From Candidatus Thalassarchaeum betae (GTDB lineage Archaea; Thermoplasmatota; Poseidoniia; Poseidoniales; Thalassarchaeaceae): DNA of 64,000 nucleotides. Positions 6,281 to 63,075 of this stretch are shown here, in pieces (position 1 is the first letter of the stretch; each line of letters begins with the position of its first letter). Below the pieces are notes generated by a model. The model searched no databases, had not been told where the DNA came from, and saw only the letters and a program-made list of their open reading frames with translations. Where the stretch lies: NCBI GenBank assembly GCA_022447095.1, contig JAKUUP010000002.1:16841-80840 (forward strand), written 5' to 3'. The position numbers were made by a program, and so were the translations under genes.

Positions 6281-6288
6281 GGTGTTTC

Positions 6289-7539: not shown

Positions 7540-7543
7540 GGGT

Positions 7544-9094: not shown

Positions 9095-9179
9095 ACGCCC
9101 ACCTTTGGTCCGGCCCGGTAGAGTACAGGTTATGAGGCCTCGCCCTGCATATCCGATGGAAAAAACAATCCAAAACGAT

Positions 9180-10298: not shown

Positions 10299-10306
10299 GC
10301 TTCACC

Positions 10307-10822: not shown

Positions 10823-10922
10823 GTCCGGGCGCTGGCTGGGACCTTCTTGAATGCTGTTGCGAGTCAGGCTGCGTCGGGGTGTGTGTCGAACGGGCTAAAC
10901 CGGCATCACCTGTCGGGCGGGC

Positions 10923-12140: not shown

Positions 12141-12209
12141 CGAAATCCGGCCCTCCGGGTCGTGAAGCAACGTTCATGTGGGCCACACTGTCGGGACCGA
12201 TTGAGAGAG

Positions 12210-13382: not shown

Positions 13383-13465
13383 GTCTCGATTGGGCTCTAT
13401 AGAGCCCATTTCGCCTTCCCAATCTTCTTAGATGGGTCTTCGGTCGCCGAAGCGCCGGTGCTCAC

Positions 13466-14227: not shown

Positions 14228-14236
14228 GGTTAGAGC

Positions 14237-34097: not shown

Positions 34098-34126
34098 GGG
34101 GTGCCGATGCGAGTCGGGCAAATGAA

Positions 34127-37167: not shown

Positions 37168-37187
37168 GATATCACTCGATTCGTTCA

Positions 37188-37475
37188 CTATGTCCACTCG
37201 GTCGGCTCGTCCTTCTTCGCCTTCTTCCAAGCGCGGTAGCACGACTTGCACACCGTGACTCTGCGCGAGTCCTTGTTGAGCCCCGACTCGCCCCAAACAT
37301 CAGCGGCCCTGTCGAAGGCCAGCTTGCGGCCTCCGATCTTCTTGTCGGCCCAGTTGTCGCAACCGGCGACATCGCACTTGGCCTCGCCAACGTATTCCTC
37401 GACCGTCTTCTCCTCGGGGCCGGCCGCTGCTGCCGCGACCTGACGTCTCTTGCGGGCCTTGGACTTGAATCCCAT
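37188..37475 (-). CDS. Small basic hypothetical protein with four Cys (CDVAGC / CKSC), putative Zn finger
   Basis: Fills the gap between purA and pruA on the same strand with short spacers. Confidence 0.7.
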   Translation of the reverse strand: MGFKSKARKRRQVAAAAAGPEEKTVEEYVGEAKCDVAGCDNWADKKIGGRKLAFDRAADVWGESGLNKDSRRVTVCKSCYRAWKKAKKDEPTEWT

Positions 37476-45143: not shown

Positions 45144-48100
45144 TTACTGGCGCCGGCTGAGGTACTCAGCGCCGTAGTAGTGCCACTGTTCCATGGTCCA
45201 TCCGGGAGGCAGTCCCTCAGGTGGAAGTGGTGGCATCATAGGTGGTGGGGGCGGTATGTCCTCAGACAAGCCATCCTCGGCTTCCTGAGAGTGCTCATAT
45301 TCCTCGTCGCGAACCGTGCTGGCGTAGTCAATTGCCGACTCTGAAGCGAGGCTCTGGCGTCGCAGAGTGATGGCGAGCGCGAGGACCAGTGCAAGAGATA
45401 GCAGAAGTCCGATTCCCACCAATCCCATCGACATCATGGGGCTGGTGCCGGTGGATTCGGTTTCCGGGTCATCGTCCACAGGTTCTTCGATGATCTCCTG
45501 CGGCGCGATGGCGTATATCCGATGCTGCTCCTCCGTAACACGGTCGAAGCCGTTCTGGTCGATGCCTTCGACTGAGAGCGTGATGTAATCACCGACACCA
45601 AGGCCAGCGCCGCTGACGTGGTTGGCGATAAACGGCCCGAGGTTGTGTGAGATGCCCGATGAGTGGCAGATTCCAGTTATGCTGTTGCATATCGTCCAGA
45701 GGACCTTGATGTCGGTCAGCTCGTACTGCCCCGCGTTCTGAATCATGAACGTCGGATTGGTGCCGTACTCGACCGTGTCGAAACTAGCCACAAGGTCGGT
45801 TTCCCAGAAGAGCGGCAGGTCGTCGACAACATCGATGATGATGATGGCGGCACTGGCGTCACCATGCCTGTCTTCCAAGGTTATAGTGACCACCTCTTCC
45901 CCAGAATCTTCCCACGCCATGGTCAGTATGCCAGTTATGGGATTGAACTGGACTGCACCGGGGACGAAGGTCATCGCCGTGGCCCAGATCTCTTCATCTG
46001 GGTCGTCGATGTCTGTCATCCTGTCGAGCAACTCAAGGGTGATCCTGTCGCCGATCTTGACAGTAAACTCGTCGATTCCGGTCAGGTCGATGCGGGGTGC
46101 ATCGTTGACGTTGAGGACGTGGAAGGTGATTACGGTGTCCGAGAACTTGACGCCGTCACTGGCCCTGACGGTGATTTCGGAGATTCCGGTCGAGTCGTCG
46201 TCAAGTGAGCCAACGGAGAGAGAGTGGCCGGAGATGCTTGCATCGACCAGTGACTCGTCTGAGTTACTGAGCAGTTCAAGCGTCAGTCCTGAGACTGGGA
46301 CAGGGTAGCCGTTGTCATCGGTGTCGGACAGGAACTCTGACAGACCGATGCTGGCGGAGCCGCCTTCTTCGAAGGACTGAGTCGGTATAGATGCCCACCT
46401 AGGGGCACCGTTCTCTATCACGTTGAACATCATCATTCCAGAGTTAACGTCGTCGCCGTCATCTACCGTGACGAACATACCCTGTGGGACGGGGTTGCCT
46501 TGGCCGTCTCTGATGACTTGACTGAACTCGACGACTATTTCGAGCGTCGAGGAATCCCACTCCACAAACTCGGGAGAGTTACTGTCGATACTAAGCAACG
46601 AAATCGGAGTCTCGGCGTCGTGGACGAGACCGATCACAGAGACCCTTTCCTGGGTCTCGACCTTGACAGTAGGCATCCCGGCGTACTGAGGGTGTCCGTT
46701 GCCCAGAACGATGGGCAGGGCGTTTTCCAATTCGAAGGCTGCGGCGGATATCATCCAGTCGCTTGACTGGCCGCCAGCATCGGTCCACTTGATTCTGAGG
46801 TCGTAATCCCCCACTTCAGCATTGAGAGGAACTGCGATTGTGTGGACATAGCGGGCGTTGCCGCCGCTTCCCACCATGTCAATATCGGTGATCCATGCTT
46901 CGTCCCACATCTCGGATCCTGCCGTAGAGTAGTGCATCGTAGGTGTCAGCGTGGACATGTCGTCCACCAAGTCGTTGGGCAGGGCGGTCGACTCGAACTG
47001 GATGGTGTCGCCCCTCTCGATCGAGGTCGAGGCTATGGCCGTCGGCTGGTTGGAGACAGGCGGCATGTCGTGCAGCGCGCTGTCGTCGGCGTAGTCGTTC
47101 GACGATACACGATCCGCGGTGAGGCCGAGGAGCATGGCTCGGAAAGTCGTGGCGCCGGATGCGTAGGGCGTGATTTGGGATGTGTCGAAATCAACGGTCA
47201 GTGTCTGGGTTCCGGCGGTGGCGAGGTTAGTGATTGAAGTGCCTCCGATGTATATCTCGTCGAGACCCTGGAGCTCGTAGATGGCGATCTCGCCACCGTC
47301 GTTGTAGGGGTCGACGCCGTAGTTGGTAATCTCGACGGAGACATCCAAGATATCTCCCGGAACGAAGCCGAGATTGCCGTTCTGGTTCTCAATCTGGAAG
47401 TCGGAGACGCCCACGTCGACGAGCGGGATCATGTCGAGGTCGACGGCTGAGAGGAAGGTGTTGTACGAAGTGTGCGGTCCGTCCATCAAGGCGAGGACGG
47501 GCCAGAAGTTCTCGAACTGGGTGTGCCCGGGTGCTGCTCTAACCGTGCTCAGTGGAACCGTCCAAGTCCTTTCAGCGACATTGTTCGGAGTCAGGGTCAG
47601 CTGCTCAAAGCCGTTGTTGTTGCTGTTGGGGAGCCATTCCCTCCAGTTGTTGTGAGGCCTGTTGCCGTTGTCGTAGGCATCGGCGCCGATCCGCTCGGTG
47701 ACCGCTCCGTAGAGGTAGACGGTGACTGAGGACGACGATCCTAGGTAGGTCACCTCAACTGTGATGGTGACCTCGTCGCCAGCGCTGTTCAGGATGGTAG
47801 AGAGTTCCATTGCGTAGTCGGATACGTCAGAACCCATGCATCCGCCGGCCGAGTAGTCGGCGTCGTAGTAGTTGTTTCCGGCGGAGCCGACCTTGTAGCA
47901 TGTCCCGCTCTGGGCATCGGCGAAGCCGAATGTAGGGTAGCCGCTTGAGGCCGCCATCACGTGGTCCGTCCTGTAGATCGGGCCGTCGGAGGGCCAGCCT
48001 CCGGAAGAGGATTCAAAGAACGAAACGAAGGTGAAGTCCTCGCCGTTCGAACTCTTGAGGTTTGCAAGCGAAGGGGATGCGCTGTCCATGCACGGCCCGC

Positions 48101-48296
48101 ACCAGTGCGCTCCGACGTATTCGCCGAACACAGCGTGCCCCGGACTGGTTGCATACAGAGGCATTTTCTTCTGCTCCAGTTGTTCGCGTTCCTCGACCTT
48201 ATCGTCCATCGCCATGAAGCCTGTGAAGGACATCATGACTACCAGAGCTGCCAAGGTCACCGGTTGAATGATTGAGAGCATTCGCACTGTAGTCAT
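45144..48296 (-). CDS. Large membrane-anchored extracellular protein: thioredoxin/Omp28-like N-domain, Ig/cadherin-like repeats, TM, Pro-rich tail
   Basis: Signal peptide; GAHWCGPC; NGAP/NDAP/NALP beta-sandwich starts; C-terminal TM then PPLPPEGLPPGWTMEQWHYYG. Confidence 0.75.
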   Translation of the reverse strand: MTTVRMLSIIQPVTLAALVVMMSFTGFMAMDDKVEEREQLEQKKMPLYATSPGHAVFGEYVGAHWCGPCMDSASPSLANLKSSNGEDFTFVSFFESSSGGWPSDGPIYRTDHVMAASSGYPTFGFADAQSGTCYKVGSAGNNYYDADYSAGGCMGSDVSDYAMELSTILNSAGDEVTITVEVTYLGSSSSVTVYLYGAVTERIGADAYDNGNRPHNNWREWLPNSNNNGFEQLTLTPNNVAERTWTVPLSTVRAAPGHTQFENFWPVLALMDGPHTSYNTFLSAVDLDMIPLVDVGVSDFQIENQNGNLGFVPGDILDVSVEITNYGVDPYNDGGEIAIYELQGLDEIYIGGTSITNLATAGTQTLTVDFDTSQITPYASGATTFRAMLLGLTADRVSSNDYADDSALHDMPPVSNQPTAIASTSIERGDTIQFESTALPNDLVDDMSTLTPTMHYSTAGSEMWDEAWITDIDMVGSGGNARYVHTIAVPLNAEVGDYDLRIKWTDAGGQSSDWMISAAAFELENALPIVLGNGHPQYAGMPTVKVETQERVSVIGLVHDAETPISLLSIDSNSPEFVEWDSSTLEIVVEFSQVIRDGQGNPVPQGMFVTVDDGDDVNSGMMMFNVIENGAPRWASIPTQSFEEGGSASIGLSEFLSDTDDNGYPVPVSGLTLELLSNSDESLVDASISGHSLSVGSLDDDSTGISEITVRASDGVKFSDTVITFHVLNVNDAPRIDLTGIDEFTVKIGDRITLELLDRMTDIDDPDEEIWATAMTFVPGAVQFNPITGILTMAWEDSGEEVVTITLEDRHGDASAAIIIIDVVDDLPLFWETDLVASFDTVEYGTNPTFMIQNAGQYELTDIKVLWTICNSITGICHSSGISHNLGPFIANHVSGAGLGVGDYITLSVEGIDQNGFDRVTEEQHRIYAIAPQEIIEEPVDDDPETESTGTSPMMSMGLVGIGLLLSLALVLALAITLRRQSLASESAIDYASTVRDEEYEHSQEAEDGLSEDIPPPPPMMPPLPPEGLPPGWTMEQWHYYGAEYLSRRQ

Positions 48297-48343
48297 CGTT
48301 TTTCCCGCAGCGAGGCGCCGTATAACCATGTTGCACTTATGAG

Positions 48344-51215: not shown

Positions 51216-51938
51216 ATGGCCAAGCCGAGATTCGCCTATCTGCTCCTGAAGGAGCATCCGTATGGTCGCGAGATGCTACGGCAGATCCTCTCAGGGGGCT
51301 TTGTGCCGCAGATCATAATCGAAGAGGATTCGGCGATTGGAGACGAGGAGCGTGAGAAGTTCCTCAAACGCATCGAGGGGAATCCGATAGCGCCTCCAAT
51401 CGCTGAACAAGCCGCCGAAAACGGCATCCCGCTCGTCACCGTCCCAATCCACAGGTCACCCGAGGTGATGCCTCACCTCAATGGCATGGAACTCGATCTC
51501 ATCGTCTTCGGCGGGACCCGGATCATCCGTGGGGAGATTCTCGACTACCCCAAGGACGGGGTCATCAACGCACATCCGGGTTTTCTTCCCGACTGCAGGG
51601 GCTCAGCCTCACCGGCATGGTCTGTCTATCACGACATCAGGGTTGGCTCAACGTGCCACTTCTGCGACAACGGCATAGACACGGGTGAGATGCTACTGAG
51701 GCGCGAAGTGCCTGTGAAGCGGGGTATGACGTACGAAGATCTGTGCTACCAGACACTGGCCTTGGCTGGAGTCTTGATGAAGGAGGCATTGATGGCATAC
51801 GAGGACGGCCGATGGGATGAGATGCGTCGACCACAAGGTGAAAGCGAGTACCCTACCTTCCGCAATGCGTCGGATGAGGTGCTTGAGGTGGTTTACCAGA
51901 AACTGCGCGACCAAACGTACGCTCATTACGTGGATTAG
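51216..51938 (+). CDS. Formyltransferase family protein (N10-formyl-THF dependent, catalytic domain only)
   Basis: INAHPGFLP..RG, H..D.GIDTG: Asn-His-Asp triad intact; no Fmt C-terminal tRNA-binding domain. Confidence 0.85.
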   Translation: MAKPRFAYLLLKEHPYGREMLRQILSGGFVPQIIIEEDSAIGDEEREKFLKRIEGNPIAPPIAEQAAENGIPLVTVPIHRSPEVMPHLNGMELDLIVFGGTRIIRGEILDYPKDGVINAHPGFLPDCRGSASPAWSVYHDIRVGSTCHFCDNGIDTGEMLLRREVPVKRGMTYEDLCYQTLALAGVLMKEALMAYEDGRWDEMRRPQGESEYPTFRNASDEVLEVVYQKLRDQTYAHYVD

Positions 51939-51946
51939 GTGTGAAT

Positions 51947-52747
51947 ATGAACGATGAACTGCTCAATGACGGATTCCCGTTTGCCGAAGGCGTCCTAGAC
52001 GGAAAAACTGCGCTCGTTTGCGGTGCCTCAAAGGGCATCGGCCGCGCCTGCGCGCTGATGCTCGCTCGCGCGGGTGCCCGCGTAGTCGCGTGCGCCCGCT
52101 CTACGGCCGACCTCGACTCGCTGGTGACTGAGATGCACGGAGATGGGCATGAGGTCCTCGCATTGGATCTCGAAGACCTAGATGCGGTGCGCGAGGCCGT
52201 CTCAGGCATGGGTACCATACATATCCTGGTGAACAACTCAGGCGGTCCGCCCGGAGGTCCGCTGCTGGAAAACACGCTGGACGAGTTCGAAGGCCCGTTC
52301 CGCCGCCATCTGCACGCTGCTCACACAATCACTCAGGCACTTGTTCCTGAGATGGAAGTAGCCGGCACCGGGCGAATCGTGAACATCATCTCGACCTCGG
52401 TGCGCGAGCCGATCGACAACATCGGCCTTTCGAACACTCTACGCGGGGCGATGGCCTCGTGGGCCAAATCACTGTCTCGCGAGTTGCCCGCGTGCGTGAC
52501 CATCAACAACATCATGCCCGGCTTCACCGACACCGACCGGCTCGGCTCGCTGGCCGCCTCGATATCCGAGAGCACCGGCAAGCCGGTCGAGGATGTGCGC
52601 GACGAGTGGATGAGCGGCGTGCCCATCCAGCGGCTCATAGACCCGCTCGAGACTGCGGCTGCGGTCACATGGCTGTGCCTACCAAGTAGCAGCGCCGTCC
52701 GCGGCATCAGTCTAGCAGTCGACGGCGGGAGAATGCGTTCGATCTGA
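51947..52747 (+). CDS. Atypical SDR oxidoreductase
   Basis: CGASKGIG, NNSGGPP, STSV, SNTLR in place of YxxxK, PGFTDTDR, VDGG. Confidence 0.9.
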   Translation: MNDELLNDGFPFAEGVLDGKTALVCGASKGIGRACALMLARAGARVVACARSTADLDSLVTEMHGDGHEVLALDLEDLDAVREAVSGMGTIHILVNNSGGPPGGPLLENTLDEFEGPFRRHLHAAHTITQALVPEMEVAGTGRIVNIISTSVREPIDNIGLSNTLRGAMASWAKSLSRELPACVTINNIMPGFTDTDRLGSLAASISESTGKPVEDVRDEWMSGVPIQRLIDPLETAAAVTWLCLPSSSAVRGISLAVDGGRMRSI

Positions 52748-52753
52748 TTGGTG

Positions 52754-54001
52754 ATGCGCTTGCGCTTTGACATATTCTTCTCAATCTCTCAGACGCCGGA
52801 TACCTCCGGCTACACTCCCTCCGAGAGCGAGATGTTCACCGGCTTCTTCGACCAAGTGGAGCTCGCCGACGAGCTCGGCTTCGGAGTGGGCTGGGTCGCT
52901 CAGGCGCACCTCTCCACAGAGGTGCAGAAGCACAACAGCAGGCCCGTAGTGCCTCACTTCCCCGGTGAGGTGGGGCTTTGTACCGACTTCTTCCAAGTCG
53001 CAGGGCAGATGTTCGCCCGTACCGAGCGGATGGAAGTCGGTAGCGCGGTGATGTCGATCCTCGGCTCGGGGGGGCCGATCGCACAAGCCGAGCGTGTGGG
53101 TTCGTTTCTCGCCTTGCACGGCCTCGACCCGGATGAGTCCCGCCGCCTGCACGTCGGTTTCTCAGCCGGTCGCTTCGAGTTCATGGCCCGCCCCTATGGC
53201 GTCGTCCCGCGCGACGCGGTAGAAGTGGCCGCTTGGCCGGCCCTGCGCGGCCAGGTCTTCGCCGAAGCCTCGGAGATTTTCCTCCGACTACTGAACGGCG
53301 AGGTGGTATCGTCGGACATGATCCGACCCACAGTACTGACTAGGGCCAACTTCCGATCTGACGAGGACTGGAGGATGGTGCAGCAGGCCGCCGTCGAATT
53401 CCGAGGGCTAGATGGAGAGCCGGACGAGGTGACCATCGAGAGTCGTTACGAGTTTGAAGATATCAAGACGATACCCCAAGAGTGGAGGAGGGAACTGCTC
53501 AACCTGGTGCTCGGCAGCCACGACCCTGGACTGCAGGCCGATGTGAACAAACTCAGGCCGGTGCAGGTGTTCAACCTCAGCATAACCCCGCCTCACATCA
53601 TCGAGGAGACACACGACAGGTTCAGAGAGCACTACCACCCTGACGGCGGCCCATGGGAGCGAAGCATGATGCCACGCACCATCATGGTCTTCGTCAACGA
53701 TGAGAGTGGACTCACGCCAGAAGAGCAGAACGCTGCGGCGATGGATGAGGCGAAAGCCGCGCTTTCGACCTACTGGAGCGCTCTGGAGGGTACCATCGAC
53801 CCGGCGAAGGTCGAGCGGGCGACTGACAATGCAGTGATAGGAAATGTCGAGCGCGTGAGCGAGCAGATTCTCGAAAGATTCCATCCCGATGACCGCCTGA
53901 TGTGCTGGTTCGACTTCTTCAACCACGACAGCGAACGCGTCAAGAGGAACATGACGGCATTCATGACCAAGGTCGCACCGCGCGTCAACGGAGGTGTGTG
54001 A
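52754..54001 (+). CDS. Luciferase-like (LLM) flavin-dependent oxidoreductase, divergent
   Basis: ADELGF...WVAQAH, T.R.EVGSAV, P...AE, L.VGF..G; TIM-barrel length. Confidence 0.8.
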   Translation: MRLRFDIFFSISQTPDTSGYTPSESEMFTGFFDQVELADELGFGVGWVAQAHLSTEVQKHNSRPVVPHFPGEVGLCTDFFQVAGQMFARTERMEVGSAVMSILGSGGPIAQAERVGSFLALHGLDPDESRRLHVGFSAGRFEFMARPYGVVPRDAVEVAAWPALRGQVFAEASEIFLRLLNGEVVSSDMIRPTVLTRANFRSDEDWRMVQQAAVEFRGLDGEPDEVTIESRYEFEDIKTIPQEWRRELLNLVLGSHDPGLQADVNKLRPVQVFNLSITPPHIIEETHDRFREHYHPDGGPWERSMMPRTIMVFVNDESGLTPEEQNAAAMDEAKAALSTYWSALEGTIDPAKVERATDNAVIGNVERVSEQILERFHPDDRLMCWFDFFNHDSERVKRNMTAFMTKVAPRVNGGV

Positions 54002-54002
54002 T

Positions 54003-55187
54003 ATGAGCGAGGGAGAAAGTGGTCGACCATCGAGCGTGGCACCCGGCAGACCGGGTTCCGCCGTCTACCCGACGAATCCGCTCGGTGAGCAGCACGACGG
54101 CATCGCCACCGGGCGCGACGTAGAGTGGGAGCCGCTGGTCGACTTCCGTCGCATGGACGTCTCCGAGAACACCATCCACGGTGCAATCGCCTGGGCTCAC
54201 GGCACAGAGATCGTTCACTCCTTTGGGGGCAACGTGCTGGTCTACGGACGCTCGATGATGAAGCCGCTGATGATGAAGACCTTCCAAGAGGCGCTGACTG
54301 CCGAGGGTCTGAACTGGGAGCAGAAGGCAATCGCCTGCTCCTCGCATAACGGAGACACCGAGCACGTGGCGGCCGCCCAGTCTCTTCTCTCCGAGTCCGA
54401 GTGGGGGCTGATGCAGTGCCCCCTCGATGTCCCTCTCATCCAGTTCGGCCGTCAGGTTAGGCGCCCCCGCCGCTGGTTCCACACCTGTTCGGGAGAACAT
54501 GCTGCGATGCTCAAGGCTCTGCGCAGGATGGGAATCAACCGCGCCGGCTACACCCTTCCCAGCGCGTCTTGGTTCCCGATGTACCTCGATGTGCTCCGCC
54601 GCATCATGGACAAGCCCGAATGGGAGCCACAGAGAGTCGCCAAGGACGGTTGTGGCTTGCCAACGGTCTCCAACACCGTGGACGAACTCGCAGTGATGTT
54701 CGCTGGTCTCGTCCGAGAGAAGGACGAGGACTGGATTTGGGAATCAATGAACCGTCATCCTGACCTCGTTGGTGGGTTCAACCGCCTCGACTCGACCTGC
54801 CTGAAGGCCGGCCAGGGGGAGTTGCTCGCAAAGGAAGGCGCGGACGGGCTGCTCGGACTCTCTATCATACACCCAGACTGGCCGAAAGGGCTCGGAATAG
54901 TCATCAAGATCGCACACGGCTGGAACAGTCAGGCGACATGGTACGTAGCCCGAGCGGTCCTAGGAGTACTGGGGATTCGCCTCCGCAATCCCTACCCTCT
55001 CCATCGACAGAAGGCGTTCATCGTGCCGGGGATAGTGCCGCCGCAGTACCTCAAGGAACTCGAGAGTGTCGTCACATGGGACGAATGGGACCCAGACAGG
55101 GACCGTTTCACCTTGGACTGGAAGGAGTACACTGCAGCGATGACCCGTTCAGACCCGTTCGCCAACGAGAGCGCGGAGGGTTCCTGA
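54003..55187 (+). CDS. Class 3 (Rhizobium AnsA-type) asparaginase-like amidohydrolase
   Basis: RSMMKP, CSSHNG, HTCSGEH (canonical HNCSGKH), DGCGLP, AKEGADG. Confidence 0.82.
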   Translation: MSEGESGRPSSVAPGRPGSAVYPTNPLGEQHDGIATGRDVEWEPLVDFRRMDVSENTIHGAIAWAHGTEIVHSFGGNVLVYGRSMMKPLMMKTFQEALTAEGLNWEQKAIACSSHNGDTEHVAAAQSLLSESEWGLMQCPLDVPLIQFGRQVRRPRRWFHTCSGEHAAMLKALRRMGINRAGYTLPSASWFPMYLDVLRRIMDKPEWEPQRVAKDGCGLPTVSNTVDELAVMFAGLVREKDEDWIWESMNRHPDLVGGFNRLDSTCLKAGQGELLAKEGADGLLGLSIIHPDWPKGLGIVIKIAHGWNSQATWYVARAVLGVLGIRLRNPYPLHRQKAFIVPGIVPPQYLKELESVVTWDEWDPDRDRFTLDWKEYTAAMTRSDPFANESAEGS

Positions 55188-56627
55188 ATGGATGATCTGC
55201 ACAACTACATCGGCGGTCAGTTCCTAACTCACTCCGGAGGGCAGTGGATGAACAACACTGAGCCTGCCACAGGCTCGCACATCTGCCGCATCCCACTCTC
55301 TGATGCGTCCGATGTCGATGCCGCTGTCGATGCCGCGAGGTCAGCCCAGCCCGCTTGGGCTGCGCTGAGCCACTCAGAGCGCGCCGGCTGGTTAGATCGC
55401 ATCGCTGATGCTCTCGAAGCGCGCTACGAGGATATCGCTGTGTTGGAGAGTCGAGATACCGGTAAGCCAATCTCACTCGCCCGAGCAGTGGACGCCCACC
55501 GTTCGGTGTCAAACTTTCGCTTCTTCGCCGGGATTCTGCGCGAGCACGAGGAGGAGGTCTTCGAGATGACGAGCGCGACCAACTACGTGGTCAACAAGCC
55601 AGTAGGCGTTGGTGCGCTGATCACCCCGTGGAACCTGCCGCTCTATTTGCTCTCGTGGAAGGTAGCTCCCGCCATCGGCATGGGCAACACCGTGGTGTGC
55701 AAACCCAGCGAGTTGACTCCGCTGACCGCTGACCTGATGATGCGGGTCATCGACGAGGTTGGCCTGCCTGCTGGCGTGGTCAACCTAGTCCACGGTGAAG
55801 GGGCAGGGGCTGGCGCGCCTCTGGTCTCCCACTCCGGCGTAGACCTGGTCTCCTTCACAGGCGGCACGTCGACTGGCGAGAAAGTGGCGGCATCGGCTGC
55901 TCCCGCGTTCAAGAAACTCAGCCTAGAGCTCGGCGGTAAGAACGCAAGCATAGTGTTCGCAGACTGCGATATGGACTCGACTGTAGCCGGAGTTGTGCGA
56001 GCTGGCTTCCTCAATCAGGGTCAGGTCTGCCTGTGTGGCTCGAGGGTGCTAATCGAGGATTCCGCTTACGCAGAGTTCCGAGACCGCTTCGTGGATGCCG
56101 TAGAGGCAATGCGTATCGGCGACCCTTCTGAAGAGTCGACTGATCTCGGCGCGCTCATCTCAGAGGAGCATCTCGCGAAGGTGCAGGGTTACGTCGAACT
56201 GGCCAAGCAAGAGGGTGGAGTCCTCTTGACCGGTGGCACGCCCTGTCTACCATCCGGCTTCGAGGGTGGCAACTGGATGGCGCCCACGGTCATCGAGGGC
56301 CTTAGCCCCGACTCGAGGTGCTCGACTGAGGAGATATTCGGGCCTGTCGTCACACTCCACCCGTTCGGCAGCGAGGACGAGGCTGTGGCGATAGCCAACA
56401 ACACTCGCTACGGGCTGGCCGGCAGCGTCTGGACTAGTGACCTCGACAAGGGCAGGAGGGTCTCCGAGGCTATCGACACGGGGATGGTATGGGTCAACAC
56501 CTGGCTCCACAGGGACTTGCGCGTCCCGTTCGGAGGCGTCAAGGACAGCGGAGTGGGACGTGAGGGTGGCAAGTGGAGTCTGGGCTTCTTCTCAGAGGCC
56601 ATGAACGTCTGTGTCAAGCACGACTGA
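55188..56627 (+). CDS. Aldehyde dehydrogenase, ALDH8 / 2-aminomuconate-semialdehyde dehydrogenase-like
   Basis: RSVSNFRFFA, PWNLPLYLLSWKVAPA, LSLELGGKN, NQGQVCLCGSR, WLHRDLRVPFGGVK.SGVGREGG. Confidence 0.88.
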   Translation: MDDLHNYIGGQFLTHSGGQWMNNTEPATGSHICRIPLSDASDVDAAVDAARSAQPAWAALSHSERAGWLDRIADALEARYEDIAVLESRDTGKPISLARAVDAHRSVSNFRFFAGILREHEEEVFEMTSATNYVVNKPVGVGALITPWNLPLYLLSWKVAPAIGMGNTVVCKPSELTPLTADLMMRVIDEVGLPAGVVNLVHGEGAGAGAPLVSHSGVDLVSFTGGTSTGEKVAASAAPAFKKLSLELGGKNASIVFADCDMDSTVAGVVRAGFLNQGQVCLCGSRVLIEDSAYAEFRDRFVDAVEAMRIGDPSEESTDLGALISEEHLAKVQGYVELAKQEGGVLLTGGTPCLPSGFEGGNWMAPTVIEGLSPDSRCSTEEIFGPVVTLHPFGSEDEAVAIANNTRYGLAGSVWTSDLDKGRRVSEAIDTGMVWVNTWLHRDLRVPFGGVKDSGVGREGGKWSLGFFSEAMNVCVKHD

Positions 56628-56670
56628 TGCAGCAAGAGTGAAAGTCCGCTCTTGGGCGATGCGGGACAAT

Positions 56671-57651
56671 ATGGCGCCTGTGGGTATCGTCGGATTGGGT
56701 GCATACGTTCCACCCGATGTCATGACCAACGACGACTGGGCCGAGATAGTTGACACCAGTGATGAGTGGATAACCACCAAGACCGGTATCAAGGAGCGCA
56801 GGATCGCCGCGGAAGACGTTTGCACCAGCGACCTTGCCGTCATCGCCTGCAAGCAGGCCATGGACGAGGCCGGCATTGGCCCCGAGGATGTAGACATGCT
56901 CATCCTCGCCACCTCCTCTCCCGACGTCCCTCTCTCTTCGACAGCAGGCATCACCCAACACAAGCTCGGTTGCACCAATGCGGCCGCCTTCGACATCAAC
57001 GCGGTGTGTGCGGGCTGGGTGCAGGCACTCGATGTAGGAGCACGTTTCGCCGGCACCCCCGGATACGACAACGTGCTGGTCGTGGGTGCTGAGGTCTACA
57101 GCAGAATTCTCAACTGGGAGGACCGCACGACGTGCGTCCTCTTCGGCGACGGTGCCGGGGCAGCGGTCCTGCAGGAAGTAGGCGAAGACAGGGGTCTACT
57201 TGGAAGCTGGATGATGTCCGACGGCGGCGGAGCTGAGGTCATCGTGATCCCGGCGGGCGGAGTCAAGAAGCCGATTCCGTCCCCGGGCTTCGAGGACGGA
57301 GACCAGTACTTCCACATGGACGGGCCTGCTGTGTGGGACTTCGCCACCGAGGCTTTTCCGCAGGCGGTTCGGGGCGTTCTTGAGCGGACCGGTCACTCAC
57401 TGGGCGACGTCTCTCTGATTATCGCCCATCAGGCGAATCTTAACATCATCAAAGCGGGTATGGAGAATCTCGGGCTGCCGATGGACAAGACGTTCACGAA
57501 CCTGCACAAGTACGGCAACACTGCCGGCGCCAGTGTGCCCATCGCTCTGCGCGAGGCGCGCGATGAGGGGCTGATAGGATCAGGCGACCTTGTGGTCACC
57601 GTGGCCTTCGGCGGCGGCCTTGCATGGGGTGCAAACGCAATCATCTGGTGA
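56671..57651 (+). CDS. fabH: Beta-ketoacyl-ACP synthase III (bacterial type)
   Basis: DTSDEWI...TGIKERR, AVCAGW (Cys), LFGDGAGA, HQAN (His), GNTAGAS (Asn), FGGGLAWG; start 56659 or 56671. Confidence 0.9.
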   Translation: MAPVGIVGLGAYVPPDVMTNDDWAEIVDTSDEWITTKTGIKERRIAAEDVCTSDLAVIACKQAMDEAGIGPEDVDMLILATSSPDVPLSSTAGITQHKLGCTNAAAFDINAVCAGWVQALDVGARFAGTPGYDNVLVVGAEVYSRILNWEDRTTCVLFGDGAGAAVLQEVGEDRGLLGSWMMSDGGGAEVIVIPAGGVKKPIPSPGFEDGDQYFHMDGPAVWDFATEAFPQAVRGVLERTGHSLGDVSLIIAHQANLNIIKAGMENLGLPMDKTFTNLHKYGNTAGASVPIALREARDEGLIGSGDLVVTVAFGGGLAWGANAIIW

Positions 57652-57966: not shown

Positions 57967-60900
57967 CTATTCTAGAGGAATCCACGACCCGGTGGCAGCA
58001 TCGAAGGTCAGGAGGCTCCCATCGGGGTTCTGTGCGAACACGGTTCCAGAGTCGTCCACCCAGACTAACTGGCCCTGTTCGTTCAGTTTCGCGTTGGCGG
58101 GTGCTGAAGGCGTCTCGAGCTCGGCCTCGAGCTCCTGGATGAACTGGTCGGAATCTAGAGTCTCTTCGACCTCAGGCTCCGTCTGGTACATCGGCTGAGA
58201 TTCAGAGGCCACGCTCTCGGTGTGCTCTGCGGACTCGGTGATTGTGGAATCGCCCCTTCGGCGCATCACCATAGTTCCTACTAGACCCAACACGAGCATG
58301 GCGCCCAGAACAGCGAATACGAATCCGTACTTCCCGAGAAGATCCTCCTCGAGATGTTTTGCGGGGTCGTTAGGGAAGGCATCGTCGTTGTCGCCGTAGC
58401 CGTCTCCATCGGAGTCGGCCCACTCGCGATGGTTGTTTGGGAACGCGTCGAGCGCGTCGTTGAAGCCGTCGTCGTCGGTGTCCGTGTCCTTCGGGTCTGT
58501 CGACATGACTTCTTCCTCGGAGTCGGTGAGTCCGTCGTTGTCGTCGTCCGGGTCCTCGTTATCACCCAGCCCATCCATGTCGTTGTCGTACCACTCGGTG
58601 GAGTCGAAGGGCAGGGCGTCAGCATCGTCAGGGAAGCCGTCGTTGTCGTCGTCCGCGTCCTCATCGGCGTCCTTGCACCCGTCAGCGTCGTTGTCCGAGC
58701 CGGGGCTGCTGGACCAACCCATCAAGCCCAGTGGGCACATGTCCACCCCGTCGTCGACGCCGTCCCCGTCGTCATCTAAGTCTGAGGCGTCGTGAATCCT
58801 GTCCCCATCCGTGTCGAGGTGGCAGTCCTCCTCCGAGTCAGCACCCACTTGCAGCGTGATGTGTCTCTCCGGACAATCCTCCACATCAGTGCTGCCTGTT
58901 CCGACCGCGTAGGTATCCAAGGGAGCCGGTATCTGCTCGGCCTGACCCTCATTGGGTGCGTAATGTCCGAGCATAGCATCCGAGCAGGACAGTTGGCCCA
59001 CTGCAGACTGGTAGGTGCCAGGGCTGCATGGAGTCTGTTCGGAACTGGCTTGACTGTCGACGTAGTGCCCTGCTTCGGAGGCCATGCAGTCGGAGCCACT
59101 ATCTGATGCAGAGGATGGATTGTAGGTTCCGGCAGGGCAGGGAGACTGGGACGTCATGCCGCTGTTGGTGACGAAGTACCCCGGGTCCGAGTCGAGGCAG
59201 GTGGTCTGACCCGAGTTCGGCTGGTAGGTGCCGGGGGCGCATTCAATCTGGTCGGCGAGGCCCGCGACGTCGGAGTAATGGCCGGGATCGACGTCGATGC
59301 AGTCGTCGCGGTCGTCAGAGCCGGTTGCTGAGTTGTAAGTGGTAGGGGGGCAGGGGGTCTGGGTTGCAGAGCCGTTGCTATCAACGTAGTTTCCTGACTC
59401 GGCATCTAGACAACTGGAGGCGCCGCTATCGGGTTGGAAGGTCCCCAACTGGCACTCGGCCTGAGTGGTTGATCCCAAGGCGGGGACGAAGTGCCCCGGG
59501 TCGGCATCGAGGCAGGAGTTCTGCCCGGTGCTGGGCTGGTAGGTGCCCACCTCACATCCCGACTGCGAGGACATGGCCTCCGACGAGGTATAGTGGCCTG
59601 CGTCTGTAGAGACACAGTCAGCGAGCGACGAGCTCCCGGAGTTCGGGTTGTAGGTCCCGGGGCGGCAGGCTGTCTGCTGAGTCGCTCCCGTGCCCTCGAC
59701 GTAGTACCCAGATGCAGCATCCGTGCAGGCACTCTGTGCCGTGTCAGGGTTGTACGTCCCCAAGCCGCATAGGGTCTGTGTAGTAGCCCCTCCTGAGTCG
59801 ACGTAGTTACCGGGGTCGGCGTCGAGGCACGAGGACTGTCCAGAGTTCGGTTGGTAATGGCCTGCCGTGCATGGGGTCTGATATGCCGATCCCTCTGCTG
59901 GCACTGAGTTGCCAGGGTCTGCGGGCAGACAAGCATCTGAACTCGAAGAGCCGGTGGATGGGTTGTAGGTCCCGGGCACGCAGGGAGTGGGCGATGTGGC
60001 CGCGGTGCTGTCGACGTAGTGGCCCGGTGGCGAGTCCATACATGATGAGGCTCCAGAACCAGGTTGGTATGAGCCGATGTCACAAGGAGTCTGGGAGGGA
60101 GAACCGGAAGAAGGAACATAGTAGCCTGGGTCTGCGAGATCGCACTTGTCCTGCCCCGACAGTGGCTGGTAGGAGCCGATATCACACGGGTTCTGAGTCG
60201 TGGAAGCCACGGCGTTGACGTAGTGACCTGGGTCGGCTAGCAGGCAGAATGATTGTCCCGTATTGGGCTGATAGGAGCCGATATCGCAAGGGTCTTGGCT
60301 AGTTGAGTTGTAGTACATTACGAAGTATCCGGCCGATGCGTCGATGCACGATGACTGCCCGGTGCTTGGCTGGTATGTGCCCGGGGCGCACGCGACATCG
60401 TCCGTGGCCCCCGTGGTGTTGACGTAGTGGCCAGCGTTAGCGGGAATCTGGTCTATGGCTCCAGATGTGTCGACGTAGTTCCCGAGGCTCGCTAGCAGGC
60501 ACGAGGACTGGCCTTGGAACGGCTGGTAGCTTCCCGGGCTGCACGCGGTCTGGGAGGTCGAGCCGTTATCAGGCACGTAATGACCTGGTGAGGCTTCCAC
60601 GCACGAGGACTCGTTGGAATAGGGCTGGTAGGTTCCCTCGGAGCACTGGTATTGCCCGGCACCAATCTCGACATCCACCGCCATCGACGGGTTACCGACG
60701 ACGGCTCCGTCGGTAGTGGAGAACAGCCATACTTGCAAGGTGTAGTGTCCGGTTCCGTTGTAGGGTGCCACCAGTATGTACAGGTTGGAATTGGCCGAGA
60801 AGTTCGTGTTGTTGGTCGAGGTCTCGTCGTATGCTGTGCTGTAACTCGAATTGAGCATGGTGAGGTTGTAGTCGTAGATGGCGAGATCGAAATCAGCGCC

Positions 60901-63075
60901 GGAAGGCGAGGTCAGGCCTACCGTCACCCCCATCTGCCTCGGCACCGACATCACGAACATATCCTGCACGTCACTGTTCGAATCGATGGATCCGTTGTAG
61001 TCTGCACTGTTGGCTGAGATGTTGAAGGCCGACGAGGAGTACGAGCCAGCATCACCAAAGTTGGGATTGGTATAGTTACCAGGTGAGCTGTCGACGCAGG
61101 AGGTCTGTCCCACATTGGGCTGATAAGTGCCTGCAGAGCACAGCGTCTGGGCAGATGCCTGAGTGGAGTCCACGTAGTTTCCTGCCGAGGCGGAGTAGCA
61201 CAGCGGGTATCCTGATTCCGGTTGGTATGCCCCTGCCTGGCAGGGCCGGTGATACAGGTCACCAGATAAAGCGAAGTGGCCTGGCTCAGCCTCGGTGCAA
61301 GTCAATCGTCCCCAAGATCCGGGGTCGCAGTTCATCCATCTCGCTGGGTTGCTGGGATAGGGGTCGTCGGGCACAGGGACGCCGTCGCCATCATCATCAC
61401 CTGCCATGTGTGTGTCCAAGGCATTCCGGGTGCCGTCGCCGTCCATATCTTGGTCGGAGTAGGCGATGTTGGCTCCGTCTGTGAAGTTCATTGTATGCGG
61501 GAGCAGCATGTTGTCTGAGGTGCCGTCGAACTCACCTGACTGCTGGCCCCAGCATTGCAGCGAGTAGTTGTCGAGGATTGCGCATGTCGAACCTGCTCCT
61601 GCGGAGATAGAAATGGCACTGCTGCCACTGCTGAGGCTCACGTGCACGGGAGTGTTGCCGTTTTGGCCATCACATCCACTGGTGCTGATTACCGAACTGC
61701 ATGTGCCGTCGCCCCACTGACCGTAGGTATTCACGCCCCAGCAGTTCATCGAGCCGTTGTCCAGGATTGCGCACATGTGATCGGAGGTCCCATCAATGGC
61801 GACTGCAGTCCTGCCAGCGGCGAAGTCAATATGGACAGAACCGTTTGTGACAGTCCCAAACATCGCGGTGACCGTGTAGGACTGACCCCAGCAGTACACG
61901 GAGCCATTCTCAAAGATGGCGCAGGCTCCATAGCCCGGAGTGGCTATAGCAACGGCTCGCATCCCTGTTGAGTGATTGACCTCTACTGGTACATTGCTGT
62001 GGGTGGTAGTACCGTCTCCTAGAACTCCGTAGAAGTTGCCACCCCAACACTTGATTGCGCCGGTGTTCGTTAACGCGCAAGTGGAATCGATTCCAGACGA
62101 GAGGGCTACAGCAGTGGTGTTGGTTCCTAGGTCAACGCTCACAGGTGAGTTCCTGTTTGCGTTGGACCCGTCCCCGAGTTGTCCGACGTTGTTCCTCCCC
62201 CAGCAACTGACTGAGCCGTCATCCAGTAGTGCGCAATTGTGGGAATTGCCGTCCGAGATTGCAGCTGCCATTCTGTTGCCGAGGTCAACTGTGCCGTTGC
62301 TGAGTGCGAAGGAGCCGATACCGAGTTGTCCGTAGTTGTTGACCCCTGTGCATCGGAGGCTGTAGTTGTCGAGTATAGCGCAAGAGCCAGCTATGGACAC
62401 GACGTCGTCTGAGGTGTAGACCGGGCTGCTGCTGTTGTTTGCTGAGGCGAAGGTGACGCGGGTGCCATTGTCCAGCACTAAGGTAGGAGATCCGGAGTTG
62501 AGTTCAAAGACGGAGTTGGAGAATACCGAACCCCTCTCCGAGCCGGCCTGATTCAGGGAGCTATTTGTCGAAGTGGTGGACTGAGAACTTGTCCAAGAGG
62601 AGTACCCCCAGGCATCTCCCGTATTGCCGCCGTTCCCATTGACGAAGTTCACCGCGAGGTAGAATGTGACGTCCCCGGAGCCGCTCGAAGGAGCGGTCCA
62701 ATCAACCGTCCAGGAGCGCGAGTTAGAGTTTGAATGGGTCACCTCATCGTTCTGTATCTTAGCATTCGAACCCGGGTTTGAGAATGCACCATGGGATGCA
62801 TCGAGATTGAAGCCTCCATTGGTCCCTGAAGGACCTCCAGAGCCCCCTATAGTGAGCGTGTACACCGCTCCACCAGAGTATCCAGAAGCGGGCAGACCCG
62901 AAAGTTCTGGAGTTACCGTGCCGGTGTTAGAGTGACACGCAGTACCTCCGCACCCGCTGTCAGATTTTCCCGTCTTGCCTGTGCTGTTGGCGAACGCCTC
63001 CTGCGGCACCGCAAGAACGAGTAAGAGCAGTAGTACCAACGCGATGTGTCTGGAACCCTTTTCCCCCATTTTCAT
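57967..63075 (-). CDS. Giant membrane-anchored surface protein (Reeler-like, RCC1 repeats, Cys-rich ephrin-receptor-like repeats, PPC-like domain, TSP3 Ca-binding repeats, TM)
   Basis: Signal peptide; GC....CH and W...WTAP..G.G.VTFY.A; CWG.N..GQLGDG; C.PG.YQP..GQ.SC; D.D.DG..D; C-terminal TM. Confidence 0.85.
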   Translation of the reverse strand: MKMGEKGSRHIALVLLLLLVLAVPQEAFANSTGKTGKSDSGCGGTACHSNTGTVTPELSGLPASGYSGGAVYTLTIGGSGGPSGTNGGFNLDASHGAFSNPGSNAKIQNDEVTHSNSNSRSWTVDWTAPSSGSGDVTFYLAVNFVNGNGGNTGDAWGYSSWTSSQSTTSTNSSLNQAGSERGSVFSNSVFELNSGSPTLVLDNGTRVTFASANNSSSPVYTSDDVVSIAGSCAILDNYSLRCTGVNNYGQLGIGSFALSNGTVDLGNRMAAAISDGNSHNCALLDDGSVSCWGRNNVGQLGDGSNANRNSPVSVDLGTNTTAVALSSGIDSTCALTNTGAIKCWGGNFYGVLGDGTTTHSNVPVEVNHSTGMRAVAIATPGYGACAIFENGSVYCWGQSYTVTAMFGTVTNGSVHIDFAAGRTAVAIDGTSDHMCAILDNGSMNCWGVNTYGQWGDGTCSSVISTSGCDGQNGNTPVHVSLSSGSSAISISAGAGSTCAILDNYSLQCWGQQSGEFDGTSDNMLLPHTMNFTDGANIAYSDQDMDGDGTRNALDTHMAGDDDGDGVPVPDDPYPSNPARWMNCDPGSWGRLTCTEAEPGHFALSGDLYHRPCQAGAYQPESGYPLCYSASAGNYVDSTQASAQTLCSAGTYQPNVGQTSCVDSSPGNYTNPNFGDAGSYSSSAFNISANSADYNGSIDSNSDVQDMFVMSVPRQMGVTVGLTSPSGADFDLAIYDYNLTMLNSSYSTAYDETSTNNTNFSANSNLYILVAPYNGTGHYTLQVWLFSTTDGAVVGNPSMAVDVEIGAGQYQCSEGTYQPYSNESSCVEASPGHYVPDNGSTSQTACSPGSYQPFQGQSSCLLASLGNYVDTSGAIDQIPANAGHYVNTTGATDDVACAPGTYQPSTGQSSCIDASAGYFVMYYNSTSQDPCDIGSYQPNTGQSFCLLADPGHYVNAVASTTQNPCDIGSYQPLSGQDKCDLADPGYYVPSSGSPSQTPCDIGSYQPGSGASSCMDSPPGHYVDSTAATSPTPCVPGTYNPSTGSSSSDACLPADPGNSVPAEGSAYQTPCTAGHYQPNSGQSSCLDADPGNYVDSGGATTQTLCGLGTYNPDTAQSACTDAASGYYVEGTGATQQTACRPGTYNPNSGSSSLADCVSTDAGHYTSSEAMSSQSGCEVGTYQPSTGQNSCLDADPGHFVPALGSTTQAECQLGTFQPDSGASSCLDAESGNYVDSNGSATQTPCPPTTYNSATGSDDRDDCIDVDPGHYSDVAGLADQIECAPGTYQPNSGQTTCLDSDPGYFVTNSGMTSQSPCPAGTYNPSSASDSGSDCMASEAGHYVDSQASSEQTPCSPGTYQSAVGQLSCSDAMLGHYAPNEGQAEQIPAPLDTYAVGTGSTDVEDCPERHITLQVGADSEEDCHLDTDGDRIHDASDLDDDGDGVDDGVDMCPLGLMGWSSSPGSDNDADGCKDADEDADDDNDGFPDDADALPFDSTEWYDNDMDGLGDNEDPDDDNDGLTDSEEEVMSTDPKDTDTDDDGFNDALDAFPNNHREWADSDGDGYGDNDDAFPNDPAKHLEEDLLGKYGFVFAVLGAMLVLGLVGTMVMRRRGDSTITESAEHTESVASESQPMYQTEPEVEETLDSDQFIQELEAELETPSAPANAKLNEQGQLVWVDDSGTVFAQNPDGSLLTFDAATGSWIPLE
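58365..58815 (-). repeat. Thrombospondin type-3-like Asp-rich calcium-binding repeats
   Basis: DTDGD, DDDGDGVDD, DNDADGC, DDDNDGFPD, DAFP.D..EW.D.DGDG.GDN. Confidence 0.85.
58820..60645 (-). repeat. About 17 tandem ~35-aa Cys repeats C.PG(T/S)Y(Q/N)P..GQSSC..A.PG.YV (about 3 more at 61070-61330)
   Basis: Counted by eye in the translation. Confidence 0.85.

Follow-up and report, generated by a model that had tools for sequence, protein, structure and literature searches.

A conserved gene cluster of archaea and bacteria predicted to encode a variant of the kynurenine pathway with two new enzyme activities

The bacterial kynurenine/2-aminomuconate pathway for tryptophan comprises tryptophan 2,3-dioxygenase (TDO), arylformamidase, kynurenine 3-monooxygenase (KMO), kynureninase, 3-hydroxyanthranilate 3,4-dioxygenase (HAAO), 2-amino-3-carboxymuconate 6-semialdehyde decarboxylase (ACMSD), 2-aminomuconate 6-semialdehyde dehydrogenase (AMSDH) and 2-aminomuconate deaminase. 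A gene cluster of Burkholderia cenocepacia is named for this pathway in a bioRxiv preprint. Here we describe a run of genes in a 64,000-nt stretch of Candidatus Thalassarchaeum betae (contig JAKUUP010000002.1, positions 16,841–80,840, forward strand; this whole stretch is referred to as the window) that encodes a formyltransferase-like protein, a short-chain dehydrogenase/reductase (SDR), a luciferase-like monooxygenase (LLM), an asparaginase II-like hydrolase and an aldehyde dehydrogenase (ALDH), with fabH following. These genes very probably belong to a conserved module for tryptophan and 2-aminophenol, and we predict that the set is a variant of the kynurenine pathway with two new enzyme activities.

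Loci related to this one resemble the canonical kynurenine pathway at both of its ends: they carry clustered TDO and arylformamidase genes as entry enzymes, and an AMSDH-type ALDH together with a RidA-family deaminase at the exit. The middle is different. KMO, kynureninase, HAAO and ACMSD are neither in the window nor clustered in the related loci, and their place is taken by the LLM, a hydrolase of the class 3 asparaginase type, an SDR with atypical motifs and a dioxygenase of the AmnBA type. 2-Aminophenol is predicted as the intermediate in place of 3-hydroxyanthranilate, and aspartate as the side product in place of alanine. There are also parallels to the meta-cleavage of 2-aminophenol encoded by the amnBACD, cnb and nbz clusters (dioxygenase structures 8ihg, 3vsg and 7txy), as both dioxygenase subunits, the dehydrogenase and the deaminase are found in related loci, although the window itself holds the dehydrogenase and not the dioxygenase genes. 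In those pathways the starting compounds are nitrobenzene or aminophenol pollutants, whereas tryptophan is the proposed source of the aminophenol in the present loci, and the decarboxylase, hydratase and aldolase of the lower pathway are not in the conserved set.

A third system is comparable in its chemistry. Pseudomonas fluorescens ACB is described as converting 4-hydroxyacetophenone to 4-hydroxyphenyl acetate and then to hydroquinone (PMC3727088). The proposed logic is alike, passing from aryl ketone to aryl ester, phenol, extradiol-type cleavage and a semialdehyde dehydrogenase. The hydrolase there is an esterase rather than an asparaginase-like enzyme, and 4-hydroxyacetophenone lacks the side chain of an amino acid. 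Its monooxygenase, unlike an LLM, belongs to the single-component FAD/NADPH enzymes of type I.

The window genes form six head-to-tail open reading frames (ORFs) on the forward strand between positions 51216 and 57651 (Table 1). Measured from the first ATG of each gene, the consecutive spacers are 8, 6, 1 and 0 nt, followed by 31 or 43 nt to fabH; these agree with the original prediction for this locus, made from the sequence alone, which had given the same four spacers and placed fabH about 30–45 nt further on. The gene families that it named likewise agree with Pfam and NCBIfam scans. The hydrolase start is backed by homology, in that most of the matches from related loci begin at query residues 1–10. 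The five genes from 51216 to 56627 are intact, and none of the conserved residues that were checked has been lost, which speaks for their being in use. Tight spacing by itself proves little about shared function: among the other same-strand neighbour pairs in the window 10 of 26 (longest-ORF calls) are also separated by 10 nt or less, so the case for a unit must rest on comparison with other genomes. The coding share of the window is ~96%. Its genes for eIF2-alpha, L44e, LonB and PAC2 mark the window as archaeal, and the named relatives of its LLM put it within Candidatus Thalassarchaeum/Poseidoniales, Marine Group II.

Table 1. Genes of the probable tryptophan/2-aminophenol cluster and the adjoining fabH, in window positions.
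Gene	Position	Strand	Start and length	Best family match
Formyltransferase-like	51216-51938	+	ATG, 240 aa	PF00551 Formyl_trans_N, E 5.8e-14
SDR	51947-52747	+	ATG, 266 aa; longest ORF from GTG 51941	adh_short, E 5.5e-33
LLM	52754-54001	+	ATG, 415 aa; longest ORF from TTG 52748	PF00296 Bac_luciferase, E 1.5e-7
Asparaginase II-like hydrolase	54003-55187	+	ATG, 394 aa	PF06089 Asparaginase_II, E 1.2e-44
ALDH	55188-56627	+	479 aa	Aldedh, E 2.6e-167
fabH	56659 or 56671 to 57651	+	ATG	NF006829, 369 bits (cut-off 249)

To compare the locus with others, one genome from each prokaryotic species was scanned with an alignment of full-length LLM representatives. The scan gave 593 confirmed matches, and the best-scoring 80 of these constitute the set of related loci (L001–L080). 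By the titles of their metagenome-bin records, 34 are archaeal and 46 bacterial, the latter with Planctomycetota, Myxococcota, Bdellovibrionota and assorted proteobacterial labels. For synteny, all of the loci were searched by tblastn with the proteins of the window and with partner proteins derived from the loci, and only loci with enough flanking sequence were counted. The SDR gene lies directly upstream of the LLM gene in 30/30 archaeal and 33/42 bacterial loci, the hydrolase gene directly downstream of it in 32/33 and 35/44, and the ALDH gene next after the hydrolase in 30/30 and 35/40; the full order SDR-LLM-hydrolase-ALDH on one strand is present in 27/27 archaeal and 24/37 bacterial loci. 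The core proteins are 47–82% identical across archaea and several bacterial phyla, and the surrounding genes all differ. Such conservation of gene order across two domains of life is far beyond chance, and the conserved core, kept in Poseidoniales archaea and in genome bins of many marine bacteria, is the four genes for the SDR, LLM, hydrolase and ALDH. The proposal that the genes form a functional unit is thus upheld, and the comparison of gene neighbourhoods across Poseidoniales and bacteria, which had been suggested as a check, finds the core genes together and in order in most loci. The insertions that break the block in some loci are unrelated genes. In 13 of the 34 archaeal loci (e.g. 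L040:5614-6453, +) a gene for a 279-aa tetratricopeptide repeat (TPR) protein separates those of the SDR and the LLM; the window has no such gene.

Partner genes that recur beside the block were found by clustering all of the ORFs in the loci and identifying the recurring clusters. The typical bacterial order is TDO, SDR, LLM, hydrolase, ALDH and two LigB-type genes, the second of them often fused to RidA, and sometimes a separate RidA gene and a 'cyclase' gene; the archaeal order is formyltransferase-like gene, SDR, the TPR gene where present, LLM, hydrolase, ALDH, LigB and LigB-RidA. LigB-type genes lie downstream in 12/12 archaeal and 20/23 bacterial loci, and the two LigB proteins of L077 resemble the beta (8ihg_A, E 3.1e-101) and alpha (7txy_A, E 1.6e-52) subunits of 2-aminophenol 1,6-dioxygenase. 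The cyclase-family protein of the same locus resembles arylformamidase (TIGR03035, 208 bits, below the cut-off of 223), and a same-strand arylformamidase gene closes the block in 18/23 bacterial loci and in 0/12 archaeal loci. TDO is encoded within 6 kb upstream in 12/31 bacterial and 2/13 archaeal loci, mostly directly upstream of the SDR where it is present (e.g. L024, L038, L039, L049 and L059); in L012 and L015 it is divergent and adjoins the formyltransferase-like gene, the L012 protein being 379 aa long. The TDO of L039 matches PF03301 (E 1.2e-60) and falls below the cut-off of the NCBIfam equivalog (177 versus 391), and the RidA protein of L077 matches PF01042 and scores 38.5 bits against a RutC cut-off of 169.

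The non-canonical tryptophan/kynurenine route that had been suggested for these genes is supported by this arrangement, in which TDO and arylformamidase flank the block and genes for the canonical KMO, KynU, HAAO and ACMSD are missing from the cluster. A search of 136 of the 162 eligible flanking ORFs from 44 bacterial loci, covering ~3 kb of flank, yielded no member of the kynureninase (Aminotran_5), HAAO (3-HAO) or ACMSD (Amidohydro_2) families at E ≤ 1e-12, and the same 136 ORFs include no classical flavin reductase family. The same holds in the window, where the usual kynurenine partners had been reported missing: none of the KynA, KynB, Kmo, KynU, HaaO and ACMSD families is found among its 46 other ORFs (Pfam, E ≤ 1e-5), and the best kynureninase score among the window proteins scored is 50 bits against a cut-off of 246.

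Several features of the partner genes vary among the loci. The alpha-like dioxygenase subunit is fused to RidA (L-PSP) in many of them, as in the 451-aa protein encoded at L017:14520-15875 (+), which is a difference from the described meta-cleavage clusters, and some loci with this fusion also carry a separate RidA gene. An amino acid permease with a C-terminal pair of EF-hands follows the dioxygenase genes in 17/34 archaeal loci (e.g. L017:15929-17602, +) and is a candidate importer of tryptophan or kynurenine. In a planctomycete subgroup (L039, L049 and L059) a small cupin with a weak match to cysteine dioxygenase type I, a DUF480 protein and an XdhC-like protein are encoded just upstream of TDO (7444-8037, 6681-7406 and 5840-6643 in L039), and a Lactamase_B_5 protein recurs in L032, L043 and L075. 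A database search with an AmnB-like query shows that this protein is widespread in Poseidoniales. The Poseidoniales subunit (P0273, P0283, P0290, P0315, P0320 and others) bears the NCBI name 'tRNA U-34 5-methylaminomethyl-2-thiouridine biosynthesis protein', which looks like a propagated mis-annotation; it is named 2-aminophenol 1,6-dioxygenase beta subunit by JGI.

The history of the module was examined with a quick maximum-likelihood tree of 88 LLM sequences, made up of 77 of the 80 loci (three partial ones were dropped), the window and ten database proteins. The 35 archaeal rows lie on one side of a branch with an SH-like approximate likelihood ratio (SH-aLRT) support of 94, and the window together with a Thalassarchaeum betae relative is sister to all of the other archaeal copies. 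When the tree is rooted on distant representatives, the archaeal rows sit among the bacterial ones, which fits a single transfer from bacteria; the archaea may thus have gained the module once, although the direction hinges on the assumed root.

The best solved relatives of the ALDH are 2-aminomuconate 6-semialdehyde dehydrogenases (4u3w, E 4.5e-138; 4i1w), and its best NCBIfam model is 2-hydroxymuconic semialdehyde dehydrogenase, at 561 bits against a cut-off of 693, a score that does not certify the exact substrate. The substrate-binding Arg120 and Arg464 of the P. fluorescens AMSDH align with identical residues, R105 and R442. This pair is described as strictly conserved in the AMSDH family and absent from other ALDHs (PMC4286809). 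Among the cluster-linked ALDHs R105 is present in 67/69 and R442 in 66/69, and the catalytic Cys281, Glu247 and Asn149 in 69/69. Both the solved relatives and the two family-specific arginines thus agree with the earlier assignment of this enzyme to the 2-aminomuconate/2-hydroxymuconate semialdehyde type.

The hydrolase has no NCBIfam family match, and its solved relatives are the Rhizobium etli class 3 (PF06089) asparaginases ReAIV and ReAV (8cly, E 6.2e-16; 7os3, E 8.8e-16). The equivalents of Arg47, Ser48, Lys51, Ser80, Cys135, His139, Tyr156, Asp187, Cys189 and Lys263 are invariant in 70/70 cluster-linked copies, the window included. It therefore shares with ReAV and ReAIV both Ser-Lys tandems (Ser48-Lys51 and Ser80-Lys263), Arg47, His139, Tyr156, Asp187 and both zinc cysteines, and it differs from them at the third ligand of the Cys135/Lys138/Cys189 zinc site, where the equivalent of Lys138 is Glu in all 70 copies (motif CSGEH; E165 in the window). 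Lys138 reaches 97% conservation among genuine asparaginase orthologues in the study from which the list of conserved positions is taken (PMC11024299). Given this replacement we do not file the hydrolase as a true L-asparaginase and place it in a distinct subfamily. The retention of the catalytic and near-substrate residues of class 3 enzymes fits an aspartyl-type substrate, which the protein probably still binds, with an altered leaving-group or metal site, and it may work like an asparaginase on a beta-aspartyl compound. Since it is always embedded in an aromatic-catabolism cluster, that substrate is probably not free asparagine; we propose a beta-aspartyl 2-aminophenyl ester or the 2-hydroxyanilide, cleavage of which would yield L-aspartate and 2-aminophenol.

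The LLM belongs to a small family: a search of 1.84 billion cluster representatives yields 320 relatives at E ≤ 1e-3. Its match to PF00296 is weak and covers the N-terminal part of the protein (residues 4–186), and it has neither an NCBIfam family match nor a sequence match to a solved structure at E ≤ 1. The AlphaFold2 model has a mean predicted local distance difference test (pLDDT) of 92.9, and Foldseek returned 166 matches to it at E ≤ 0.001; those listed include F420-dependent enzymes of the LLM fold, 2i7g, luciferases, RslO1, the type II Baeyer-Villiger 3,6-diketocamphane monooxygenase 4uwm (rank 17), RutA and SsuD, with TM-scores of ~0.5–0.6 and identities of 11–16%. The model thus confirms the LLM TIM-barrel class, though not the type of reaction. 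The predicted fold is shared with the two-component LLMs (bacterial luciferase, 3,6-diketocamphane monooxygenase, RutA and SsuD), and the teaming of an LLM with an amidohydrolase and a RidA protein is shared with RutA in the Rut pathway. The window LLM differs from the two-component enzymes in the low identity of the structural alignments, in being ~70–90 residues longer, and in lacking a classical flavin reductase gene among the flanking ORFs searched in its relatives. We propose that it is a flavin-dependent Baeyer-Villiger monooxygenase acting on kynurenine or N-formylkynurenine. Rut-like or trigonelline-like catabolism of an N-heterocycle was also considered and was dropped on the identities of the flanking genes, with the LLM unmatched in NCBIfam and RidA scoring as given above against RutC. 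One 1501-aa database protein (P0125) combines an N-terminal part of this family with GATase and ApbE (flavin transferase) domains, and could be a real fusion or an artefact of gene calling or assembly.

The SDR is atypical. Its best NCBIfam model is PRK08339 (151 bits versus a cut-off of 339), and its closest solved relatives carry only a generic name (5va8, E 1.6e-36). The glycine motif is kept, with G26, G30, I31 and G32 in 65/65 cluster-linked copies, and the GxSxGIG, NNxGGP and S162-N-T-x-R166 motifs are each found in 62–64 of the 65. The last of these, Ser-Asn-Thr-x-Arg, occupies the position of Tyr-x3-Lys, as placed by what we take to be the usual spacing of that pair and not by a reference alignment; read in this way, the sequence departs from the classical catalytic Ser...Tyr-x3-Lys set. 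The SDR is the sole NAD(P)H-type protein of the conserved set and adjoins the LLM. It may supply reduced flavin to the LLM; the 136 flanking ORFs include no classical flavin reductase. Its role would be either this one, as flavin-reducing NAD(P)H partner, or that of a reductase later in the pathway.

The formyltransferase-like protein consists of the N-terminal formyltransferase domain only. The NCBIfam equivalogs Fmt, PurN, PurU and ArnA all score far below their cut-offs (52.9 versus 201.5 for Fmt and 39.3 versus 150.1 for PurN), and the protein appears to be a member of PF00551 that is none of these named enzymes. Its best solved relatives are hydrolase domains of 10-formyltetrahydrofolate dehydrogenase (4qpd, E 5.5e-14); the alignment with them shows an identical catalytic His in the HP motif and an identical Asp in the DTG motif, and an Asn lies two residues before the HP-motif His. 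The named homologues among the best 120 matches are all archaeal and, among the matches listed, at least 77% identical. The gene is directly upstream of that for the SDR in 19/19 archaeal and 0/36 bacterial loci, and so it is an archaeal add-on outside the conserved core; it had been counted among the coupled genes, and in this respect the original prediction is not supported. It is present exactly where arylformamidase is absent, however, and this complementary distribution suggests that it takes over deformylation in archaea, so that the part of the claim in which it stands in for removal of the N-formyl group could still be correct. We think that it probably replaces arylformamidase there, with or without folate as acceptor, albeit with low confidence.

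Taken together, the neighbouring genes constrain what the LLM and hydrolase could do. With TDO and arylformamidase as entry and AmnBA, ALDH and RidA as exit, the LLM, hydrolase and SDR are the sole conserved genes left for the conversion of kynurenine to 2-aminophenol. Kynurenine is an aryl ketone, and insertion of oxygen would yield an aspartate beta-ester, so an asparaginase-like enzyme is what would be expected to cleave the ester or anilide. In the proposed route tryptophan would be opened to N-formylkynurenine and deformylated to kynurenine; the LLM, with reduced flavin and O2, would then place an oxygen atom into the bond that joins the ketone carbon to the ring in a Baeyer-Villiger reaction, giving the 2-aminophenyl beta-ester of aspartate, which can shift to N4-(2-hydroxyphenyl)asparagine. 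The hydrolase would split the beta-aspartyl bond to release L-aspartate and 2-aminophenol, the AmnBA-type dioxygenase would open 2-aminophenol to 2-aminomuconate semialdehyde, the ALDH would oxidize this to 2-aminomuconate, and a RidA protein would deaminate the product. Such a route would make KMO, kynureninase, HAAO and ACMSD unnecessary. It gives a role to every conserved gene except the SDR, and no extra gene is needed from tryptophan to 4-oxalocrotonate. It also departs from the original prediction, which had tentatively assigned ring oxygenation and N-formyl hydrolysis to the oxygenase and hydrolase; the linked 2-aminophenol 1,6-dioxygenase points instead to oxygenation of the ketone and then beta-aspartyl hydrolysis.

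We hold the parts of this proposal with differing confidence. That the LLM and hydrolase bridge kynurenine to 2-aminophenol is, on balance, somewhat probable. That the genes at 51216-56627 are an archaeal copy of a conserved tryptophan-via-kynurenine catabolic module working by the whole mechanism set out above is a tentative reading, which falls a little short of probable, and the specific Baeyer-Villiger and beta-aspartyl chemistry, drawn from gene context and family membership, is to be regarded as more tentative again. A broader scenario is slightly more doubtful still: that marine bacteria of several phyla and Marine Group IIb (MGIIb) archaea, the latter perhaps through a single acquisition from bacteria, share a tryptophan route independent of KMO and kynureninase that relies on an LLM and a re-tooled asparaginase, and that the archaeal formyltransferase-like enzyme replaces arylformamidase and may pass the formyl group to folate. 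Within the literature covered, which lies outside most subscription journals, no account was found of kynurenine being turned into 2-aminophenol, of the present set of genes or of Marine Group II archaea catabolizing tryptophan.

A number of observations weigh against the proposed route. The locus set is a best-scoring and not a random sample, its division into archaea and bacteria depends on record titles, and the clade of the window itself, with LLMs 87–98% identical, falls outside the set, as the scan pattern mismatches the window LLM at the anchor motif. In 13/37 bacterial loci one or more of the core genes besides that of the LLM are missing from the expected place, the hydrolase gene being missing there in some (e.g. 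L050, L051 and L053). The fold search does not favour Baeyer-Villiger enzymes, with RutA, SsuD and F420-dependent enzymes scoring alike; the cluster has no classical flavin reductase, and an SDR in that capacity would be unusual. One of the 136 flanking ORFs, in L056, is a FAD_binding_3 monooxygenase, and KMO, kynureninase, HAAO and ACMSD could lie elsewhere in these genomes, beyond the ~3 kb of flank scanned. In all 64 kb of the window itself, tblastn with TDO, arylformamidase, LigB and RidA queries from related loci gave no match at E ≤ 1e-6. The dioxygenase genes of the window may lie just beyond it, since in several relatives unrelated genes intervene between the ALDH and dioxygenase genes. 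When the window genes that lie beyond the ALDH, together with two from upstream, were compared by blastp with all ORFs of the related loci, the upstream methyltransferase gave the single match; nothing in those loci corresponds to the genes that follow fabH.

A rival to the proposed route is one closer to the canonical pathway with swapped enzyme families, in which the LLM hydroxylates the ring of kynurenine or anthranilate and an AmnBA-like enzyme cleaves 3-hydroxyanthranilate in place of HAAO, with kynureninase and ACMSD encoded elsewhere and the hydrolase and SDR in side reactions; in a sub-variant, the LLM turns anthranilate into 2-aminophenol by decarboxylative hydroxylation. The context of TDO, arylformamidase, AMSDH and RidA fits this equally, LLMs also hydroxylate and the fold search does not separate the reaction types, and the search for kynureninase and ACMSD covered flanks and not whole genomes. 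We nonetheless consider it unlikely, as it leaves without a role a hydrolase that is nearly always translationally adjacent to the LLM (the 32/33 archaeal and 35/44 bacterial loci above), and it needs at least two unlinked genes whose families, like that of HAAO, are represented by none of the 136 flanking ORFs. The dioxygenase subunits, moreover, match 2-aminophenol 1,6-dioxygenases with the E-values given for L077, and the ALDH keeps the pocket arginines that bind 2-aminomuconate semialdehyde.

A more general doubt concerns the substrate, as the module might degrade some other compound that yields 2-aminophenol or a similar aminophenol, such as a different indole derivative or an aromatic amide of the N-aryl or N-acyl kind, with the link to TDO and arylformamidase loose or secondary. 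TDO is indeed within 6 kb upstream in the minority of loci noted above, both proteins fall below their NCBIfam cut-offs, and the amn and cnb clusters, to judge from the molecule names of the structures, serve in the degradation of nitroaromatics and aminophenol. This alternative is improbable in view of the arylformamidase gene on the same strand at the block end in most bacterial loci, the usual position of TDO directly upstream of the SDR when it is present, the amino acid permease that follows the block in half of the archaeal loci, and the residues typical of asparagine-acting enzymes that the hydrolase keeps. Least probable by far is that unrelated genes are simply packed together in a compact archaeal genome with no shared pathway. 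Close spacing is common in the window, as noted, and genes that are unrelated to the block lie beside it on the same strand, with those for a tRNA methyltransferase, a GtrA-like protein and aspartyl-tRNA synthetase upstream and fabH downstream, but the four-gene order is kept across archaea and several bacterial phyla while its surroundings differ, and the separate, well-supported bacterial branches of the LLM tree speak against mis-binned archaeal DNA as its source.

If the kynurenine-to-2-aminophenol route is correct, it would be a widespread variant that replaces four textbook enzymes of tryptophan catabolism, and its new activities would be a kynurenine Baeyer-Villiger monooxygenase and a beta-aspartyl aryl ester/anilide hydrolase. 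It would provide a function for an orphan LLM subfamily and for a subfamily of asparaginase II proteins whose annotation as asparaginase is probably wrong, and it would explain why genes for 2-aminophenol dioxygenases, familiar from the breakdown of pollutants, are common among microbes of the open ocean. Marine Group II archaea, which are abundant and uncultured, would obtain aspartate and ammonia from tryptophan, and this would matter for their use of nitrogen and carbon.

The fabH gene had been included as a possible member of the unit, but it is within 10.5 kb of the LLM in 0/12 archaeal and 0/23 bacterial loci, and hence in none of the 35 related loci with enough flank; it is best treated as a neighbour only, which may be co-transcribed. 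The protein is a bacterial-type beta-ketoacyl-acyl carrier protein synthase III (KAS III), with a score of 336 bits for TIGR00747 (cut-off 292) in addition to the match in Table 1, and the occurrence in an archaeon of a bacterial-type FabH above cut-off may be relevant to fatty acid synthesis of a bacterial kind in Marine Group II archaea. The gene run is flanked by two very large genes on the opposite strand: that at 57967-63075 (-) encodes a 1702-aa protein with RCC1 repeats and many ephrin-receptor-like repeats, and that at 45144-48329 (-) a 1061-aa protein with no Pfam match, which has a C-terminal hydrophobic stretch followed by a proline-rich tail. Elsewhere in the window, the regions 5105-15163 and 33312-37296 encode two acyl-CoA dehydrogenases, electron transfer flavoprotein alpha and beta subunits and 3-hydroxy-3-methylglutaryl-CoA synthase, as well as a certified L-glutamate gamma-semialdehyde dehydrogenase (742 versus 614 bits) beside a sodium:solute symporter. 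From this gene content the organism looks like a heterotroph that oxidizes amino acids and fatty acids.

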